Below, one piece after another: positions 8,430 to 20,525 of a DNA stretch of 31,989 nt. The notes under the pieces are model-generated. The model searched no databases. It worked only from the letters and a program-made list of their open reading frames with translations, and had not been told where the DNA came from. The DNA is from a virus: UHGV virus genome UHGV-0114034; one strand, given 5' to 3'. Position 1 is the stretch's first letter. Each line of letters opens with the position of its first letter. Made by a program: the position numbers and the translations under genes.

Positions 8430-9077
8430 TCACCCAAACGTCTCTTCAGGCCACTGCGCCTTAACTACCTTGCCTATGATGCGGCAGCTATGGTCGCAAT
8501 CCAGGGTTCTATATGCCGGGTTTAAAGGTACCAGGTAACTAACCCCTGCATCCTTCTCATACTTCTTGAACGTTGCCTCTGAATCACCATTTGCAGAAGC
8601 CACGCAGAAATCCCCAGACTCTACCGGCTCAGCCGGATCAACGAGTATCAGCATGCCTTCCGGAAAACTTGGACGAACCCCCTGAGGCGCCGTCATTGAA
8701 TGCCCCTTCACCTCAAGCCAGAAAGCTTTTTCGCTGGCTTTTGTGGTCGTTGGGACCCATGCCTTTGCATCGCTGGCTGTGTAGCTTCCCACCTCCGAAA
8801 ATGGCCCAGCCTGCACTGAAGAAAATAACGGGTATTCATATTGGCGAAATACGGCGTCTGAATCCTCGCCAAACATTATTTTTGCCGGAGATACGCCGAG
8901 TGCCGCCCCAAGAACCAGCGCGTCATCCGCGCTAACCTTTCTTGTTCCTAACTCGTAGTTCCCCAGGCGTGAAGGCGCAGCCCAGCCGCAAAGCTTGGCC
9001 AATTGAGCCTGGCTAAGTCCTTTAGCTTCTCTAAGGGACTTGATCCTTTCCCCGATAATTTCATGCATCGTTTTCAT
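8430..9077 (-). CDS. cI: CI-type prophage repressor (HTH plus S24 LexA-like peptidase domain)
   Basis: N-terminal HTH ([22 protein letters not shown]) and C-terminal S24 autocleavage domain (KGHSM); divergent from cro across operators. Start may be the second ATG at 9068 (AAGGGA 8 nt upstream). Confidence 0.85.
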
Positions 9078-11912: not shown

Positions 11913-12125
11913 ATGGACACCGTTAACGGAATGTGTTCAGACGCACCGCGTGCCAAAAAATGTAAATGCGGAAAATCACCGACAATATTCGACATGGAGA
12001 GCGGGTGCCAAATCTACTGCGCTAACCACGCCGCTGTGGCGGCCGCGAATTATCGCAGTGCGGTAACGGAGTGGAATAACCTGAAATCTGTTAGAGAGGG
12101 AAGTCATGAAAAAACTGACCTTTGA
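11913..12125 (+). CDS. hypothetical Cys-rich protein (possible zinc ribbon)
   Basis: 70-aa ORF with RBS GAGGGGG; CKCGK...CQIYC cysteine pairs. Confidence 0.45.
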   Translation: MDTVNGMCSDAPRAKKCKCGKSPTIFDMESGCQIYCANHAAVAAANYRSAVTEWNNLKSVREGSHEKTDL

Positions 12126-12522
12126 AATTCGATCTCCAGCACATCAGCAAAACGCTATTCACGCAGTACAGCAAATCCTTCCAGACCCAACCAAACCAAT
12201 CGTAGTAACCATTCAGGAACGCAACCGCAGCATTCGGCAAAATGCACGCCTTCACGCGATGCTATCTGAAATAAGTAAGAAGGCTACATATCATGGAAAA
12301 GCAAGAAATATTGAGTTTTGGAAGGGGTTATTCGTTTCTGGTTGGCAGATTGCAACCAACCAGCACCCTGAGATTATATCAGGGTTAGAAGGTGAGCTAA
12401 TAAACATCAGAGAGAGTACGGCGACTCTATCTGTAAAAAAAATATCCGAAATAATGGACTACATAGAAGCATATTGTGCCATGAACTCAATTCATCTTAG
12501 CGAATGGAGGAATTATGATTGA
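12106..12522 (+). CDS. ninB: NinB (Orf-family recombination mediator)
   Basis: First ~40 aa (MKKLTFEIRSPAHQQNAIHAVQQILPDPTKPIVVTIQERNRS) match lambda NinB as recalled; C-terminal part divergent. Confidence 0.8.
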   Translation: MKKLTFEIRSPAHQQNAIHAVQQILPDPTKPIVVTIQERNRSIRQNARLHAMLSEISKKATYHGKARNIEFWKGLFVSGWQIATNQHPEIISGLEGELINIRESTATLSVKKISEIMDYIEAYCAMNSIHLSEWRNYD

Positions 12523-13117
12523 GGTTTGGGTAGATATCGAAGGAATTCCATTTTATCAGGTTAGCAATAAAGGGAATTTCAGGTCTATTACGAGGGAAAT
12601 TACAGTAACATCAACCAGACAGAGGCCATATAAGAAAATAATTAATGGCACTAGCGTAAAACCATTCAAGTGCAAGTCGACAGGATATCTTCAAATAAAG
12701 GTATACGGTAAGAAATACAGCGCACACAGGATAGTTGCGAAAGCATTCTGTACAGGGTTCTGTGATGGCTTGGTAGTTAATCACAAAAATGGGCAAAGAG
12801 ATGACAATAGGGCTGAAAACCTTGAATGGGTATCACATTCTGAAAACTCAAAGCACGGATATAAACAAAATGGAAGAATACCTATATCGCTAGGTAAATT
12901 TAGTGGTGATCATCCTGCCAGTAAAGCTGTTATTTCTACTGACATGAAAACTGGGGAGGAGGTTTATTATGAAGCAGCTATGGATGCTGTCAGAGAAGGA
13001 TTTGATAGTTCGTCAATTAGTCGTTGCTGTAATGGCGAAAGCTCATATCACAAAGGAAGATTCTGGCGATTTGCAAATGAAACAATGAAAGCGCGATGGG
13101 GAGACAGGGCGGCATGA
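12515..13117 (+). mobile_element. HNH homing endonuclease gene (NUMOD4 plus HNH_3-like) inserted at ninB 3' end
   Basis: 200-aa ORF: WVDIEGIPFYQVSNKGNFRS and VVNHKNGQRDDNRAENLEWVSHSEN motifs; last residues KARWGDRAA match the lambda NinB C-terminus. Confidence 0.7.
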
Positions 13118-14662: not shown

Positions 14663-14847
14663 ACGCCACAATTCAAACGATACCAGAGCTTCTTATCCAG
14701 ACACGAGGCAATCAGACCGAAGTGGCGAGGATGCTTTCCTGCGCAAGAGGAACAGTGCTCAAGTACAACCGAGACAGCAAAGGCGATCGTCACGTAATAG
14801 TTAACGGCGTCCTGATGGTCAAACAGGGAAAGAGGGGAAGACGATGA
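14659..14847 (+). CDS. ninH: NinH-like protein
   Basis: 62 aa; GNQTEVARMLSCARGTVLKY matches lambda NinH core GNQTEVARRLKCSRGTVRKY. Confidence 0.6.
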   Translation: MNATIQTIPELLIQTRGNQTEVARMLSCARGTVLKYNRDSKGDRHVIVNGVLMVKQGKRGRR

Positions 14848-15362
14848 GCATAAGAGAACTAAACCTCACCAAAGAGCAGCACGAGTGGCTGAATGGCTGG
14901 CTTGAACTGTGGGGCGCATGGGTTTATTCAGGTCGTCTTGAAAAGCGCATGAGCAGCGTAATAGCGAAGTTCATGGAGAGCGTAGAGCCGGGAAGAGTTA
15001 TGACAAGGCCAATGTGCAATGATGATGATGGAATGTTGATTTCTCAGGTCGTCGATTCTGTCATGTGCATTGACAAGAAAGCCTTTGGCATCCTCCTCAG
15101 CTACTACGCTCATGGTTCATCTAAGCGAGCAATTGCATCCTACTATCACGCGACTGCAAAGCCACGCAAGATGTGTGGACGCGGTGGCGAGGGATGGAGA
15201 AAACCTTCACTGGCAACCTGTAGAAACGAAATTGACGATATCCTGAAAGCGTCATTATTTGTTTTGTACCAACCAATGCAAAATGCTTTCAAAATGCGTA
15301 AACGTGTTGAGAAAGTTAAGCATGTTGCTGTCAAAATCCTTGACATGCAATTAGCCATTTAG
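14844..15362 (+). CDS. Q: late antiterminator Q (phage 82/21 QuuD-like type)
   Basis: 172 aa; WGAW and RPMCNDDDGMLI motifs as in 82-type Q proteins; last nin-operon gene upstream of pR' and lysis genes. Confidence 0.65.
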   Translation: MSIRELNLTKEQHEWLNGWLELWGAWVYSGRLEKRMSSVIAKFMESVEPGRVMTRPMCNDDDGMLISQVVDSVMCIDKKAFGILLSYYAHGSSKRAIASYYHATAKPRKMCGRGGEGWRKPSLATCRNEIDDILKASLFVLYQPMQNAFKMRKRVEKVKHVAVKILDMQLAI

Positions 15363-15370
15363 CCATAATT
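15340..15370 (+). promoter_or_regulatory. pR'-like late promoter
   Basis: TTGACA (15340-15345), 18-bp spacer, CATAAT (15364-15369), overlapping the 3' end of Q. Confidence 0.5.
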
Positions 15371-15378
15371 AGAAGGTA

Positions 15379-15424
15379 AGCTGCCGTTAGTGACTCTTAA
15401 GTTGCAACGGTAGCTTTTTTTATT
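15379..15424 (+). terminator. tR'-like rho-independent terminator
   Basis: AAGCUGCCGUU ... AACGGUAGCUU hairpin followed by UUUUUUAUUU. Confidence 0.55.
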
Positions 15425-15425
15425 T

Positions 15426-15500
15426 GGGTCAGTCGTATAAAGGTCATTACGGAAGGCTGTTAACCTTCTTATCGTGGTTCGAGTCCACGCTGTCCCGCCA
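15426..15500 (+). tRNA. tRNA-Asn (anticodon GTT), one acceptor-stem mismatch
   Basis: Hand-folded 75-nt cloverleaf: perfect anticodon stem GAAGG/CCTTC, loop CTGTTAA, T-arm CGTGG-TTCGAGT-CCACG, discriminator G, encoded CCA. Confidence 0.6.
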
Positions 15501-15505
15501 AACAT

Positions 15506-15581
15506 GCTGGTTTAGCTCCAATGGTAGAGCGGTCGCCTTGTAAGCGAATGGGTAGCGGTTCAAGTCCGTTAACCAGCACCA
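15506..15581 (+). tRNA. tRNA-Thr (anticodon TGT)
   Basis: Hand-folded 76-nt cloverleaf: acceptor GCTGGTT/AACCAGC, D-arm GCTC-CAATGGTA-GAGC, anticodon loop CTTGTAA, discriminator A, encoded CCA. Confidence 0.6.
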
Positions 15582-15823
15582 TAACTGAGCCGTAGCCACT
15601 GGCTATCCTGAATTCATCAGTGATAGTTACGCTGCGGCCTTCTACGCATGACCTTCGTGAAAGCGGGTGGCATGAGGTTGCCCTAACAACCTCCTGCCGT
15701 TTTGCCCGTGCATATCGGTCACGAACAAATCTGATTACTAAACACAGTAGCCTGGATTTGTTCTATCAGTAACCGACCATATTCCTAATTAAATAGAGCA
15801 AATCCCCTTATTGGGGGTAAGAC

Positions 15824-16147
15824 ATGAAGATGCCAGAAAAAAATGACCTGTTAGCCGCCATTCTCGCGGCAAAGGAACAAGGCATCGGGGCAATCCTTGC
15901 GTTTGCAATGGCGTACCTTCGCGGCAGATATAATGGTGGTGCGTTTACAAAAACAGTAATCGACGCAACGATGTGCGCCATTATCGCCTGGTTCATTCGT
16001 GACCTTCTCGGCTTCGCCGGACTAAGTAGCAATCTCGCTTATATAACGAGCGTGTTCATCGGCTACATCGGTACTGACTCGATTGGTTCGCTTATCAAAC
16101 GCTTCGCTGCTAAAAAAGCCGGAGTAGAAGATGGTGGAAATCAATAA
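15824..16147 (+). CDS. S: class I holin S (dual-start MKM motif)
   Basis: 107 aa near-identical to lambda S as recalled. Confidence 0.9.
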
Positions 16148-16607
16148 TCAACGTAAGGCGTTCCTCGATATGCTGGCATGGTCAGAGGGAACTGATAACG
16201 GACGTCAGAAAACCAGAAATCATGGTTATGACGTTATTGTGGGCGGAGAGCTATTCACTGATTACTCCGATCACCCTCGCAAACTTGTCACGCTAAACCC
16301 CAAACTCAAATCAACAGCAGCCGGACGTTACCAGCTTCTTTCCCGTTGGTGGGATGCCTACCGTAAGCAGCTTGGACTGAAAGACTTCTCTCCGAAAAGC
16401 CAGGACGCTGTGGCATTGCAGCAGATTAAAGAGCGTGGCGCTTTGCCGATGATTGATCGCGGTGATATTCGTCAGGCAATCGACCGTTGCAGCAATATCT
16501 GGGCTTCACTGCCGGGGGCTGGTTATGGTCAGTTCGAGCATAAGGCTGACAGCCTGATTGCAAAATTCAAAGAAGCTGGCGGAACGGTCAGAGAGATTGA
16601 GGTATGA
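16131..16607 (+). CDS. R: endolysin R (lytic transglycosylase)
   Basis: 158 aa near-identical to lambda R ([35 protein letters not shown]...). Confidence 0.9.
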
Positions 16608-17044
16608 GCAGAGTAACCGCGATTATCTCCGCTCTGGTTATCTGCATCATCGTCTGTCTGTCATGGGCTGTTAATCATTACCGTGATAACGCCATTACCT
16701 ACAAAGCCCAGCGCGACAAAGCCACATCCATCATCGCTGACATGCAGAAGCGTCAACGTGATGTAGCAGAACTTGACGCCAGATACACAAAGGAGCTTGC
16801 TGATGCTAACGCTACTATCGAAAGTCTCCGTGCTGATGTTTCTGCTGGCCGTAAGCGGCTGCAGCTCAACGCAAACTGTCCCGCGAACGGAACGACCAGC
16901 ACCGGCGGCCTGGGCGATGTTACCGGCCCCCGACTTACTGACTCCGCTGAACGGGATTATTTCACCCTCAGAGAGCGAATCGTCACAGTGACGAAACAGG
17001 TTGGATATTTGCAGGAATACATCAAAGAGCAGTGTCTTAAGTGA
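16604..17044 (+). CDS. Rz: i-spanin Rz
   Basis: N-terminus [39 protein letters not shown] identical to lambda Rz as recalled; central region divergent. Confidence 0.85.
16803..16991 (+). CDS. Rz1: o-spanin Rz1 (lipoprotein embedded in +1 frame of Rz)
   Basis: [20 protein letters not shown] lipobox, proline-rich core, C-terminal [11 protein letters not shown] as in lambda Rz1. Confidence 0.7.
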
Positions 17045-17316: not shown

Positions 17317-17767
17317 CCATTCCAAAGCACATCTACGGGTGGGCTTGATAATGAAACCGTGATTTACACCCCACAATCCGGGTATGTAAAAGATAGTTCA
17401 GGCGAGAACAGATTTAACTAAATCTGTGCACCACCAGTTACGGCAGTACCACGAAGCAACCCAAGCCAGTAAGTGGGGAAATAACACTGGCAGCCACTGA
17501 AAGATGAACCTCCTGCCTTATGGCAAAAAAGATTCTTTGTGGTGGCGGACTGATGGAAAGACATCGGTTATTGCAGAGGCCATTCAATGAGTGGTCTCGA
17601 CAATGGCTTATACCCTGCACGGGATAACTTAACTGATATCCATTTTAACGGATAAATGGAGCCAACAATGGCAGAGATTATTCCCATGACTGAAGAACAG
17701 AAATTCCAGTTAGAGAATTACAAACTGGTCATGAACCAGAACGCCGTCGGGCGTGGAGGTTAGCCTG

Positions 17768-18118
17768 ATGCCTGCGTTAATACCGAGAGCATGCCGCAAG
17801 CGTGGCTGCCCTGGCACAACCACTGACCGCTCAGGCTATTGTGATAAACACCGCAATGAAGGCTGGCAACAGCATCAACGAGGTCAGAGCCGACAGCAAC
17901 GGGGATATGGTAGCAAATGGGATGTTCTAAGAGCCACCGTGCTTACTCGGGACAAACATTTGTGCCAGAACTGCAAGCGCAACAATCTGATCTCTCCCGC
18001 AAAGACCGTTGACCACATCATCGCTAAGGCCAATGGTGGCACGGACGACATGAGCAACCTCGAATCTCTTTGCTGGCCCTGTCATAGGTCGAAGACTGGC
18101 CGCGAACGGTTCAAATGA
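17768..18118 (+). CDS. HNH endonuclease (terminase-associated)
   Basis: Start at MPALIP (RBS GGAGG); HNH motif CQNCKRNN...DHIIAKANGGTDDMSNLESLCWPCH; upstream of terS as in HK97-like cos phages. Confidence 0.8.
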   Translation: MPALIPRACRKRGCPGTTTDRSGYCDKHRNEGWQQHQRGQSRQQRGYGSKWDVLRATVLTRDKHLCQNCKRNNLISPAKTVDHIIAKANGGTDDMSNLESLCWPCHRSKTGRERFK

Positions 18119-18315: not shown

Positions 18316-18789
18316 ATGTCTGGACCACCGAAAACCCCGACCCATCTACGTTTGGTAAGGGGTAACCCATCTAAACGCCCGATCAATGAGAACGAACCAA
18401 AACCCCCTTCAGGGGTACCCACAACGCCGAAGCATTTCGACAAGCAGGGGAAATACTGGTTTAAACGGATGGCCGACGAGCTTGATGCTATCGGTGTGAT
18501 GTCTCAGCTGGACGCCAGAGCCCTTGAGCTGCTGGTTGAGGCTTATACCGAATACCGGCATCACTGCGACACGCTTGAAGTTGAGGGCTACACCTACCGG
18601 ACCGAAACGCAGAGCGGGGATGTGCTGATCAAGGCTCATCCCGCCGCCATCATGAAAGCTGATGCCTGGAAACGTCTGCGCGCCATGCTTGGTGAGTTCG
18701 GCATGACGCCAGCCAGTCGCTCGAAAGTGAATGCAAAAGGCCCTGATGCGGTTGACCCGCTGGCCGAGTTTATGAAAGCGAGGGATTAA
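18316..18789 (+). CDS. terminase small subunit (P27/HK97 gp1-like)
   Basis: 157-aa ORF directly upstream of and overlapping the large terminase; family call by recall. Confidence 0.75.
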   Translation: MSGPPKTPTHLRLVRGNPSKRPINENEPKPPSGVPTTPKHFDKQGKYWFKRMADELDAIGVMSQLDARALELLVEAYTEYRHHCDTLEVEGYTYRTETQSGDVLIKAHPAAIMKADAWKRLRAMLGEFGMTPASRSKVNAKGPDAVDPLAEFMKARD

Positions 18790-20525
18790 TGGCTAAGGTT
18801 GCAGAAGGCATCCGCTACGCCGAGAGGGTGGTGGCGGGGGAAATTATTGCCTGTGAGTATGTGCGCCTTGCCTGTCAGCGTTTCCTTGACGATCTGGCAC
18901 ACGGCGAAGAGCGCGGTATTTTCTTCAGTGAGCCGCGCGCACAGCACATTCTGAATTTCTATAATTTTGTGCCTCACGTAAAAGGCGCGCTGGCAGGACA
19001 GCCTATTGAGCTGATGGACTGGCACGTTTTCATCCTGATTAATATTTTTGGTTTCGTTATCCCGCTGGTTAACGAAGAAACGGGAGAAACCGTCCTGCGT
19101 AATGACGGCAGCGGTCGTCCAGTAATGGTTAGGCGCTTTCGTACAGCAGATGTTGAGGTAGCCCGTAAAAATGCCAAATCAACGCTTTGCTCCGGCGTGG
19201 GGCTTTATATGGCTGGCGCCGACGGCGAGGGCGGTGCTGAGGTTTATTCCGCTGCAACCACCCGTGACCAGGCTCGAATTGTTTTTGAAGACGCGAAGAA
19301 TATGGTCAAAAAGGCGAAAGCCACGCTTGGGCGGATCTTCGAATTCAACAAGCTCGCTATCTACCAGGAGCAAACGGCCTCCAAGTTCGAGCCATTATCA
19401 TCAGATGCGAACAACCTCGATGGTCTGAACATCCACTGCGCTATCGTAGACGAGCTGCATGCTCACAAAACCCGTGACGTCTGGGACGTTCTGGAGACGG
19501 CAACCGGTGCGCGTCTGCAATCGCTGCTTTTCGGTATCACCACCGCCGGTTTCAACAAAGAAGGCATCTGCTACGAATTGCGTGATTACGCCATCAAGGT
19601 GCTGCGTGGGCTGGTAAAAGACGATACGTTTTTTGCCATTATCTACACCTTAGATGAAGGTGACGATCCATTTGATGAAAAAGTCTGGCAGAAGGCGAAT
19701 CCGGGGCTGGGTATCTGTAAGCGCTGGGATGACCTGCGCCGCCTGGCTAAAAAGGCGAAAGAGCAAGTTTCGGCCAGAATTAACTTTTTCACCAAGCACA
19801 TGAATATCTGGGTTACCGCTGAGTCAGCCTGGATGGACATGATGAAATGGGAGAAATGCGAGTTTATCGCCCCGCAGCACGAACTTAAAACCTATCCCTC
19901 CTGGGTGGGCGTTGACCTGTCAAACAAAATTGATATCTGTGCGGCCGCTAAAGTCTGGCGGGCGCCAGATGGCCACGTTCATGCGGATTTCAAATTCTGG
20001 CTACCGGAAGGACGCCTTGAGAAATGTTCACGCCAGATGGCAGAGCTCTATCGTAAGTGGGCCGGGATGGACAAGCTGATCCTTACCGACGGTGATGTAA
20101 TCGACCATGCTCAGATTAAGGAAGAGCTACAGCTGTGGGTTGCTGGCGAGAGCATGAAAGAAATTGGCTTCGACCCGTGGAGTGCGACGCAGTTCAGCCT
20201 TGCGCTGGCAGAAGAAGGGTTGCCGCTGGTGGAAGTGCCGCAGACGGTTCGCAATTTCTCTGAGGCGATGAAAGAGGTCGAAGCGCTGGTATACGGTGGC
20301 CGCTTCCATCACAGCGATCACCCGGTGATGAACTGGATGATGTCCAACGTAACCGTCAAACCTGACCGGAACGAGAACATTTTCCCGAATAAGTCCACAC
20401 CAGAGGCCAAAATTGATGGCCCTGCGGCCTTGTTCACAGCAATGAGCCGCGTTCTGGTTAACGGTGGCAACGACCAGCAGGATCTCTCCGGATTCTTCAA
20501 TAATCCCATCATGGTAGGTTTCTGA
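18789..20525 (+). CDS. terminase large subunit (HK97 gp2-like)
   Basis: 578-aa ORF with ATPase and nuclease regions in the position expected for TerL. Confidence 0.85.
   Translation: MAKVAEGIRYAERVVAGEIIACEYVRLACQRFLDDLAHGEERGIFFSEPRAQHILNFYNFVPHVKGALAGQPIELMDWHVFILINIFGFVIPLVNEETGETVLRNDGSGRPVMVRRFRTADVEVARKNAKSTLCSGVGLYMAGADGEGGAEVYSAATTRDQARIVFEDAKNMVKKAKATLGRIFEFNKLAIYQEQTASKFEPLSSDANNLDGLNIHCAIVDELHAHKTRDVWDVLETATGARLQSLLFGITTAGFNKEGICYELRDYAIKVLRGLVKDDTFFAIIYTLDEGDDPFDEKVWQKANPGLGICKRWDDLRRLAKKAKEQVSARINFFTKHMNIWVTAESAWMDMMKWEKCEFIAPQHELKTYPSWVGVDLSNKIDICAAAKVWRAPDGHVHADFKFWLPEGRLEKCSRQMAELYRKWAGMDKLILTDGDVIDHAQIKEELQLWVAGESMKEIGFDPWSATQFSLALAEEGLPLVEVPQTVRNFSEAMKEVEALVYGGRFHHSDHPVMNWMMSNVTVKPDRNENIFPNKSTPEAKIDGPAALFTAMSRVLVNGGNDQQDLSGFFNNPIMVGF

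Follow-up and report, generated by a model that had tools for sequence, protein, structure and literature searches.

Tandem tRNA genes for asparagine and threonine, placed directly behind the late promoter and terminator of a lambdoid phage, represent an already known arrangement, which has a published description in phage 21 (PMC9119081). The phage 21 record (GenBank OL657228, AJ237660) marks the late promoter pR' with its -35 and -10 hexamers, a Q-binding element (QBE) of two repeats, the transcription start, the pause element, the terminator (for which it cites Guo, Kainz and Roberts 1991, PMID 1704887) and both tRNAs. The record of phage Sf6 (AF547987; Casjens et al. 2004) annotates a late promoter, a qut site, tR', tRNA-Asn and tRNA-Thr, each as 'similar to phage 21'. 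The same pair has been noted downstream of Q in SfI, Sf6, ST64T, PS3 and p21, along with an enrichment of the ACA codon in SfI (PMC3636060), and tRNAs so placed are also treated in the paper on phage L (PMC8022706). Here we describe the equivalent element at positions 15340-15581 of the virus genome UHGV-0114034, a stretch of 31,989 nucleotides (nt) which we refer to in its entirety as the window. It is probable that this element is a phage-21-type cassette, whose functional tRNA-Asn(GUU) and tRNA-Thr(UGU) open the late operon. There is nothing new in the arrangement, which is annotated in phage 21 and Sf6, and the Asn/Thr pair belongs to many related phages and prophages, which makes the finding an ordinary one. 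An original prediction, made from the letters of the window, had proposed Q-dependent late expression of phage-supplied tRNAs at this place, an interpretation that our analysis partly supports.

The two tRNA genes, predicted as Asn-GTT and Thr-TGT, are genuine. ARAGORN calls both of them in the 15400-15600 region, on the plus strand, as are all features described below unless stated otherwise. The first, tRNA-Asn (15426-15500), has the anticodon GUU, an encoded CCA end and the discriminator G73; the second, tRNA-Thr (15506-15581), has the anticodon UGU, an encoded CCA end and a G at position 26. They are separated by the 5-nt spacer AACAT (15501-15505), a spacing also found in phage 21, Sf6 and Kapi1. 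Searches with the Rfam family RF00005 recovered the two with scores of 55.3 and 61.2 bits respectively, against a gathering score of 29, and with window-wide E-values of 1.7e-9 and 4.1e-11, i.e. far above chance; in 15300-15900 they were the only matches to any Rfam family at E<=1, with no third tRNA or other RNA family in this interval. The tRNA-Asn sequence contains the Asn identity elements G34, U35, U36 and G73, and the tRNA-Thr sequence the Thr identity elements G1:C72, C2:G71, G35 and U36, as read against the rule set for the E. coli asparaginyl- and threonyl-tRNA synthetases that reportedly goes back to Giege, Sissler and Florentz in 1998. All seven acceptor-stem pairs are formed in tRNA-Thr and six of seven in tRNA-Asn, the predicted T:T mismatch of the latter being present between U4 and U69 of the standard numbering (index 4:68 of the sequence). 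The Rfam alignment places one further non-canonical pair in each tRNA: U13:U22 in the tRNA-Asn D stem, and G27:A43 in tRNA-Thr.

The region immediately upstream of the pair comprises the parts of a Q-dependent late control module. The Q gene, which the original prediction had correctly placed here, is an open reading frame (ORF) at 14844-15362 encoding a 172-residue antiterminator of the Q21 family. Over 162 residues this protein aligns with the Q chains of phage 21 in PDB entries 6JNX (E=1.5e-90) and 6P18 (E=3.5e-90), and it matches the Pfam family PF06530 (Phage_antitermQ) with 90 bits; residues 1-102 are nearly identical to phage 21 Q and the C-terminal part has diverged. The 3' end of the gene overlaps the late promoter pR' (15340-15369), in which a -35 hexamer TTGACA (15340-15345), the point at which the predicted feature begins, is followed after 18 nt by a -10 hexamer CATAAT (15364-15369), in agreement with the sigma-70 consensus at 11 of 12 positions. 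Its place corresponds to the 'P R' (or P Late)' of the Sf6 record and to the annotated pR' -35 and -10 of phage 21. Between the hexamers lies a putative Q-binding element (15350-15365) with the direct repeats ATTAGCCA and TTTAGCCA, which has the position and repeat layout of the phage 21 QBE, whose repeats are ATTGAGCA and AATGAGCA. For phage L, the paper cited above proposes a QBE with a different specificity and describes the QBE-contacting regions of Q as differing between 21 and L (PMC8022706). Positional homology with phage 21, where transcription starts at 1151 of its locus, suggests a start at about 15376, followed by a probable sigma-dependent pause element TAAGCTG at 15377-15383 (1152-1158 in phage 21).

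The intrinsic terminator tR' (15378-15425), identified by folding and homology, consists of a hairpin (15378-15416) with a stem of 17 base pairs, a run of seven T (15415-15421), the first two of which overlap the stem base and are able to pair there, and a terminal ATTT. The hairpin folds with -21.5 to -22.8 kcal/mol (z -5.1 to -5.7), a stability never reached by shuffled sequences. A single base distinguishes it among its relatives: the window has an A at 15412 (3' arm GGTAGC), where all other distinct upstream variants with a 21-type hairpin, among the matches listed, have a G (GGTGGC). This change converts a U:G wobble into a U-A pair and renders tR' slightly more stable (-22.8 versus -21.5 kcal/mol). 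Position G1 of tRNA-Asn lies directly 3' of the T-rich tract TTTTTTTATTT and four nt past the T7 run, and hence the predicted placement directly after pR' and tR' holds and the distance of 2 nt given with it was slightly off.

Judged from its sequence, the window has all the defining features of the late control module of the phage-21/Sf6 type. The order of parts is that of phage 21, with the pause element common to both, a terminator hairpin that differs by one base and a tRNA pair identical at 155 of 156 bases; tRNA-Asn is the same in both and tRNA-Thr differs at position 26. The window departs from phage 21 in its repeats (ATTAGCCA/TTTAGCCA versus ATTGAGCA/AATGAGCA), in its -10 hexamer (CATAAT versus AACACT), in a Q protein which is 10 residues longer and whose gene overlaps the promoter, and in its lysis genes, which are of the lambda S/R/Rz type as opposed to the S21 pinholin and signal-anchor-release endolysin of phage 21. 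Agreement with Sf6 is more extensive (97.4% identity over 15300-15830), encompassing the Q subtype, promoter, repeat element, terminator, both tRNAs, leader and lambda-type holin, and the two blocks differ by point changes only, for instance at position 26 of tRNA-Thr. The same block is 97-98% identical in Sf6, E. coli phage HF4s and others, with BTP1 and SPN9CC grouping with Sf6. In contrast, the remainder of the Sf6 genome is P22-like and podoviral, and that of the window is of a mEp235/HK022-like siphovirus. The closest overall relative of the window is mEp235 (99% identity over 70% of the 8000-31989 query), which, like lambda, lacks a tRNA here and has a Q of the lambda type; the predicted contrast with lambda, with tRNAs positioned here between Q and the lysis cassette, is thus borne out.

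There is no space for a promoter of their own in front of the tRNAs, as just four nt, ATTT, separate the T7 run from tRNA-Asn. No second plus-strand promoter was found near the tRNAs, the only other candidate in 14800-16200 being a weak site (9 of 12 positions) at 15000-15029 inside Q. Hence, transcription of the tRNAs has to come from polymerase that passes tR', in line with what had been predicted, and since they would be made solely by this read-through, their expression is likely to depend on Q. In addition to Q action, early antiterminated transcripts running through Q and leakage of the terminator could contribute to tRNA transcription. An instructive comparison is provided by the Shiga toxin (Stx) phages 933W and Sp5, whose ileZ-argN-argO tRNAs likewise open the late operon, downstream of a Q-controlled terminator and ahead of the late genes. 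These tRNAs, of the Ile and Arg types, lie farther from tR' than the pair of the window, and the usual explanation for them is a supply for rare codons. Those of Sp5 seem to be transcribed from a start site of their own, mapped between tR' and stx2AB (PMC7547250), and no promoter of this Stx-phage type is present between tR' and the tRNAs of the window.

By analogy with lambda and phage 21, pR' (15340-15369) would fire constitutively and its transcripts would end about 46 nt further on, at tR' (15378-15421). The Q21 structures, which include the PDB entries matched by the window protein, show that Q acts on RNA polymerase (PMID 31455742, cited in the phage 21 record), and this structural work suggests that the Q21-family protein (14844-15362), once made, would load onto the polymerase at the promoter repeat element and allow it to ignore tR'. 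The resulting read-through RNA would contain, in this order, tRNA-Asn, the 5-nt spacer, tRNA-Thr, a leader, and the lysis and virion genes. If the tRNAs follow the standard E. coli maturation pathway, host RNase P would cut the 5' end of each, and RNase E together with 3' exonucleases would free their CCA-ending 3' ends, after which the host asparaginyl- and threonyl-tRNA synthetases could charge them. The net effect would be extra tRNA-Asn and tRNA-Thr(UGU) during bulk late-protein synthesis, the latter being specified by a single gene in E. coli.

The conservation of the pair bears directly on whether tRNA-Asn is a proper tRNA. A pattern scan of IMG/VR for the tRNA-Asn core recovered at least 119 stretches, and at least 126 sequences with this core are available when the window and the annotated phage loci are included. 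Among the matches listed, which contain 19 distinct tRNA-Asn variants, position 4:69 is unpaired in 18 (U:U in 16 and U:C in two) and is U:G in one, while the pairs 6:67, 7:66 and 28:42 switch through compensatory double changes. The count of 18 double-change cells in tRNA-Asn compares with a shuffled mean of 6.1 and was reached by none of 500 shuffles; the other covariation measures of tRNA-Asn also beat all 500 shuffles, save for the simple counts of varying pairs and of pair types. Compensatory changes occur at eight pairs of tRNA-Thr, again unmatched in 500 shuffles. The covariation scores are 0.132 for tRNA-Asn and 0.187 for tRNA-Thr, against shuffled means of 0.057 and 0.090, with neither score reached by any of the 500 shuffles. 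In slid-partner controls the signal collapses for both tRNAs, and all tRNA-Asn measures exceed these controls. Across 50 distinct homologous sequences, nucleotide diversity is 0.007 in tRNA-Asn and 0.011 in tRNA-Thr versus 0.040-0.042 in the adjacent non-coding leader, i.e. 4-6 times lower in the tRNA pair. The G26 allele of tRNA-Thr was seen in 14 of 108 copies among the matches listed.

The retention of the mismatch in 18 of 19 variants, while neighboring pairs covary, leaves the suggestion that tRNA-Asn is merely tRNA-like without support. Likewise, the RefSeq annotation pipeline (PGAP) labels an identical sequence in E. coli 5CRE51 as tRNA-Asn with no pseudogene flag. Comparison of the variants indicates that U4:U69 is a conserved trait of this tRNA-Asn lineage and not a sign of decay. 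Real decay of the cassette may be seen in a different place: the prophage copy in E. coli ET151 (chromosome 1495507-1496637) has a T54C change in tRNA-Asn, has lost the PGAP call and carries a frameshifted holin, and looks like a decaying prophage.

The cassette is widespread and found in diverse contexts. A 531-bp query (15300-15830) finds matches in 180 phage records as well as in 1390 of 5426 complete E. coli genomes, and at least 80% of this query is present in just 28 phage records and 204 E. coli genomes; RefSeq annotates both tRNAs in the matching E. coli genomes. The tRNA-Asn of the window is identical to the copies in phage 21, Sf6, BTP1 and Kapi1, and the tRNA-Thr of BTP1 differs from that of the window by one base. 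Over the loci with the tRNA-Asn core (at least 126), this gene stands directly behind intrinsic terminators of several unrelated types, including the 21 type, that of lambda tR' and four or more further ones. In Kapi1 and others, the same tRNA pair comes after a Q of the lambda type and the tR' of lambda; the joint falls within a shared TTTTTTAT run. Thus, the cassette has remained intact in combination with two Q families and no fewer than six different terminators, and the recurrence of tRNA-Asn behind so many terminator types ties it to terminator read-through. The positions of the joints suggest that the tRNA pair behaves as a discrete mobile unit, delimited on the left by the T-run of the terminator and on the right by the CCA end of tRNA-Thr. 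A tandem of the same two specificities, Asn before Thr and tightly spaced, is also known from the ban operon of P1/P7, whose tRNA-Thr is 82% identical to that of the window. However, the P1/P7 tRNA-Asn belongs to another lineage with a fully paired acceptor stem, and the operon is an early one controlled by the C1 repressor as opposed to Q antitermination.

Among the matches listed the array takes several forms: Asn-Thr at 96 loci; Asn-Phe-Thr(-Arg(-Gly)) at 10, one of them cut after Phe; Asn-(chimeric Thr)-Gly at eight; Asn alone at seven; Asn-Thr-Arg or Asn-Thr-Gly at three; and no ARAGORN call at two. The chimeric form is found in Escherichia phage JLK-2012 (1281-1434) and seven similar IMG/VR loci. 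The first 26 nt of its second tRNA are those of the phage-21-type tRNA-Thr and the remainder is like E. coli thrU (65 of 76 matches overall), with a tRNA-Gly(UCC) following that equals host glyT at 71 of 75 positions. This structure suggests that the phage array was remodelled at these loci by recombination with a host-like thrU-glyT cluster. In Salmonella phage ST64T (~1281-1352), and similarly in phage L, the 72 nt that follow tRNA-Asn resemble a tRNA but receive no ARAGORN call; the phage L paper gives a tRNA-Leu(UAA) after tRNA-Asn, by tRNAscan-SE (PMC8022706). In one Klebsiella set the hairpin ahead of tRNA-Asn lacks a T-run. In Klebsiella phage ST101-KPC2phi6.1 (1201-1517) and similar loci, a diverged tRNA-Asn heads an Asn-Phe-Thr-Arg array, which sits behind a different antiterminator gene and such a T-less hairpin, and the control upstream of the tRNAs may differ at these loci.

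To assess what the pair could be for, codon usage was compared between 22 late, 15 early-right and 17 early-left ORFs of the window and 47 annotated E. coli K-12 genes. The ACA codon, read by tRNA-Thr(UGU), occurs 10.1 times per 1000 codons in the late genes, 19.5 times in the early-right genes, 8.4-9.4 times in ordinary host genes and 1.8 times in highly expressed host genes. The excess of the late genes over the highly expressed host genes supports a role in codon supply, and to that extent the codon-usage comparison suggested along with the original prediction agrees with it; the advantage over ordinary host genes proved to be slight.

Several observations weigh against a late-operon cassette that serves late translation. 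The ACA frequency of the late genes exceeds that of ordinary host genes only about 1.2-fold, and by enrichment the codon comes 20th of 61; the major capsid gene uses ACA for just one of its 26 Thr codons, and ACA enrichment peaks in the early-right genes, whose expression precedes the action of Q. The most enriched late codons are AGG, AGA and AAG, joined in the early genes by ATA, none of which these tRNAs can read. Moreover, E. coli tRNA-Asn has four genes and one isoacceptor, and with a single isoacceptor extra tRNA-Asn cannot shift codon preference. The codon match to the late genes is therefore weak, and codon supply is at best a partial explanation, with the authors of the SfI study holding the same view of codon supply for Asn (PMC3636060). 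Apart from codons, the phage L authors call the excision of such tRNAs from the late mRNA unknown (PMC8022706). The study of the BTP1 lysogen, in which five genes exceed 100 transcripts per million (TPM) 'excluding the two tRNA genes' and late genes have a TPM of 10-20, hints that the homologous tRNAs are abundant in uninduced cultures and that their expression is perhaps not strictly late (PMC7067206).

The weak codon match would be expected if the phage copies act as spare parts or in anti-defence, replacing the host's tRNA-Asn and tRNA-Thr when tRNA-targeting toxins cleave or deplete these during infection. Colicin E5, which cuts Tyr, His, Asn and Asp tRNAs and thus has Asn among its targets, is one candidate of this kind, and VapC-type tRNases and other anticodon nucleases are further ones. 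The bodies of the phage tRNAs are indeed far from those of the host, with 48 of 78 aligned positions shared with asnT and 54 of 78 with thrU (~62-69% identical), such that enzymes which read the tRNA body could miss them; on the same values a recent capture from the host was rejected. A general anti-nuclease hypothesis for phage tRNAs has also been published (van den Berg et al. 2023, PMC10264068). However, both anticodon loops are those of the host, CUGUUAA for Asn and CUUGUAA for Thr, and the proposed signature of evasion, mutations in the anticodon loop, is therefore absent. Furthermore, to our knowledge no E. coli nuclease specific for tRNA-Thr(UGU) exists, and no defence or anti-defence gene in the window is linked to the cassette. 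On balance we regard this explanation as unlikely.

Somewhat different is the proposal that the tRNAs are expressed in the lysogen, with a constitutive pR' and a leaky tR' allowing these stable molecules to accumulate in the uninduced state and alter host translation, for example of ACA-rich, horizontally acquired genes, late expression being secondary. The setting apart of the two tRNA genes from the list of genes with TPM>100 in the BTP1 lysogen would fit this (PMC7067206), particularly as BTP1 has a tRNA-Asn identical to that of the window and a tRNA-Thr one base off, as would the constitutive activity of pR' in lysogens of Stx phages (PMC7547250) and the greater enrichment of ACA in early and accessory genes than in late genes. 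Yet about 0.2% of BTP1 cells undergo spontaneous induction and tRNAs are very stable, so that the signal may stem from induced cells, and tR' is strong on paper, with its 17 base pairs, ~-22 kcal/mol and T7 run. We accordingly consider a primarily lysogenic expression to be distinctly improbable. A cassette that is not mainly a late codon supplement but serves lysogenic conversion or provides spare parts, with mature tRNAs building up in uninduced lysogens while the lysis genes are silent and either altering how the host decodes accessory genes rich in ACA or compensating for lost tRNAs, likewise appears unlikely. Finally, that the pair is non-functional, either a relic in decay or a neutral hitchhiker, with a tRNA-Asn turned into a pseudogene by its acceptor-stem mismatch, and is kept only by its position between essential control and lysis modules, could be argued from the U4:U69 and U13:U22 mismatches, the single T54C change that sufficed to remove the PGAP call in ET151, the relatives that lack the Thr gene or have a degenerate second tRNA and the ability of lambda and mEp235 to manage with no tRNA here, but is hardly credible in light of compensatory changes that preserve both cloverleaves, a diversity 4-6 times below that of the flanking leader, the conservation of U4:U69 across two sublineages set apart by three compensated pairs, the intactness of the cassette behind at least six terminators and two Q families, and Rfam scores far over threshold.

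Downstream of the pair, the late-mRNA leader (15582-15823) shows homology to lambda from the first base after the CCA end of tRNA-Thr and on into S. It contains two unusually stable hairpins, at 15589-15638 (z -4.7) and 15663-15709 (z -4.3), and a CCCC/GGGG hairpin (15802-15817) just ahead of the dual start of S, and is polymorphic among relatives (diversity 0.04) with no clear covariation. A second intrinsic terminator at 15669-15707, which might have formed a leak trap before S, was considered and rejected: its short U-run is taken up in an internal loop of a longer stem, the hairpin has no covariation at the internal mismatch among relatives, and a literature search for tandem late terminators in lambda gave nothing. 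We leave it as part of a structured leader common to lambda. The lysis cassette proper (15824-17044) comprises S (15824-16147), R (16131-16607) and Rz (16604-17044) with an embedded Rz1, as identified from ORFs and matches to the Pfam families Phage_holin_3_1, of the lambda-type holin S, and Phage_lysis, and corresponds to the annotation of genes 60-64 in Sf6.

Elsewhere in the window, a 200-residue ORF with NUMOD4 and HNH_3 domains (12515-13117, plus strand), resembling a homing endonuclease, directly follows a ninB-like gene (12106-12522), whereas in mEp235 ninE directly follows ninB. From this comparison the ORF looks like an inserted free-standing endonuclease. Another ORF, of 121 residues (17753-18118, plus strand), encodes an HNH endonuclease and ends some 200 bp before two terminase-like genes (18316-18789 and 18789-20525), a pairing of HNH and terminase genes that is usual in cos phages of the HK97/HK022 type. 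A third ARAGORN hit, an 83-nt tRNA-Ala(cgc), lies on the minus strand (8797-8879) within a 215-residue ORF (8430-9077, minus strand) that occupies the place of the repressor gene in lambdoid phages; this call has no Rfam match at the gathering threshold and is probably a false positive.

The details which this locus adds to the known systems are minor ones, namely the unique A15412 that tightens the terminator stem, the conserved U4:U69 of tRNA-Asn and the weak codon match in this particular phage. The understanding of lambdoid late control would stay unchanged by an answer to whether such tRNAs are excised from a Q-antiterminated transcript and what benefit they bring, an answer that would instead bear on why temperate phages carry one or two tRNAs.

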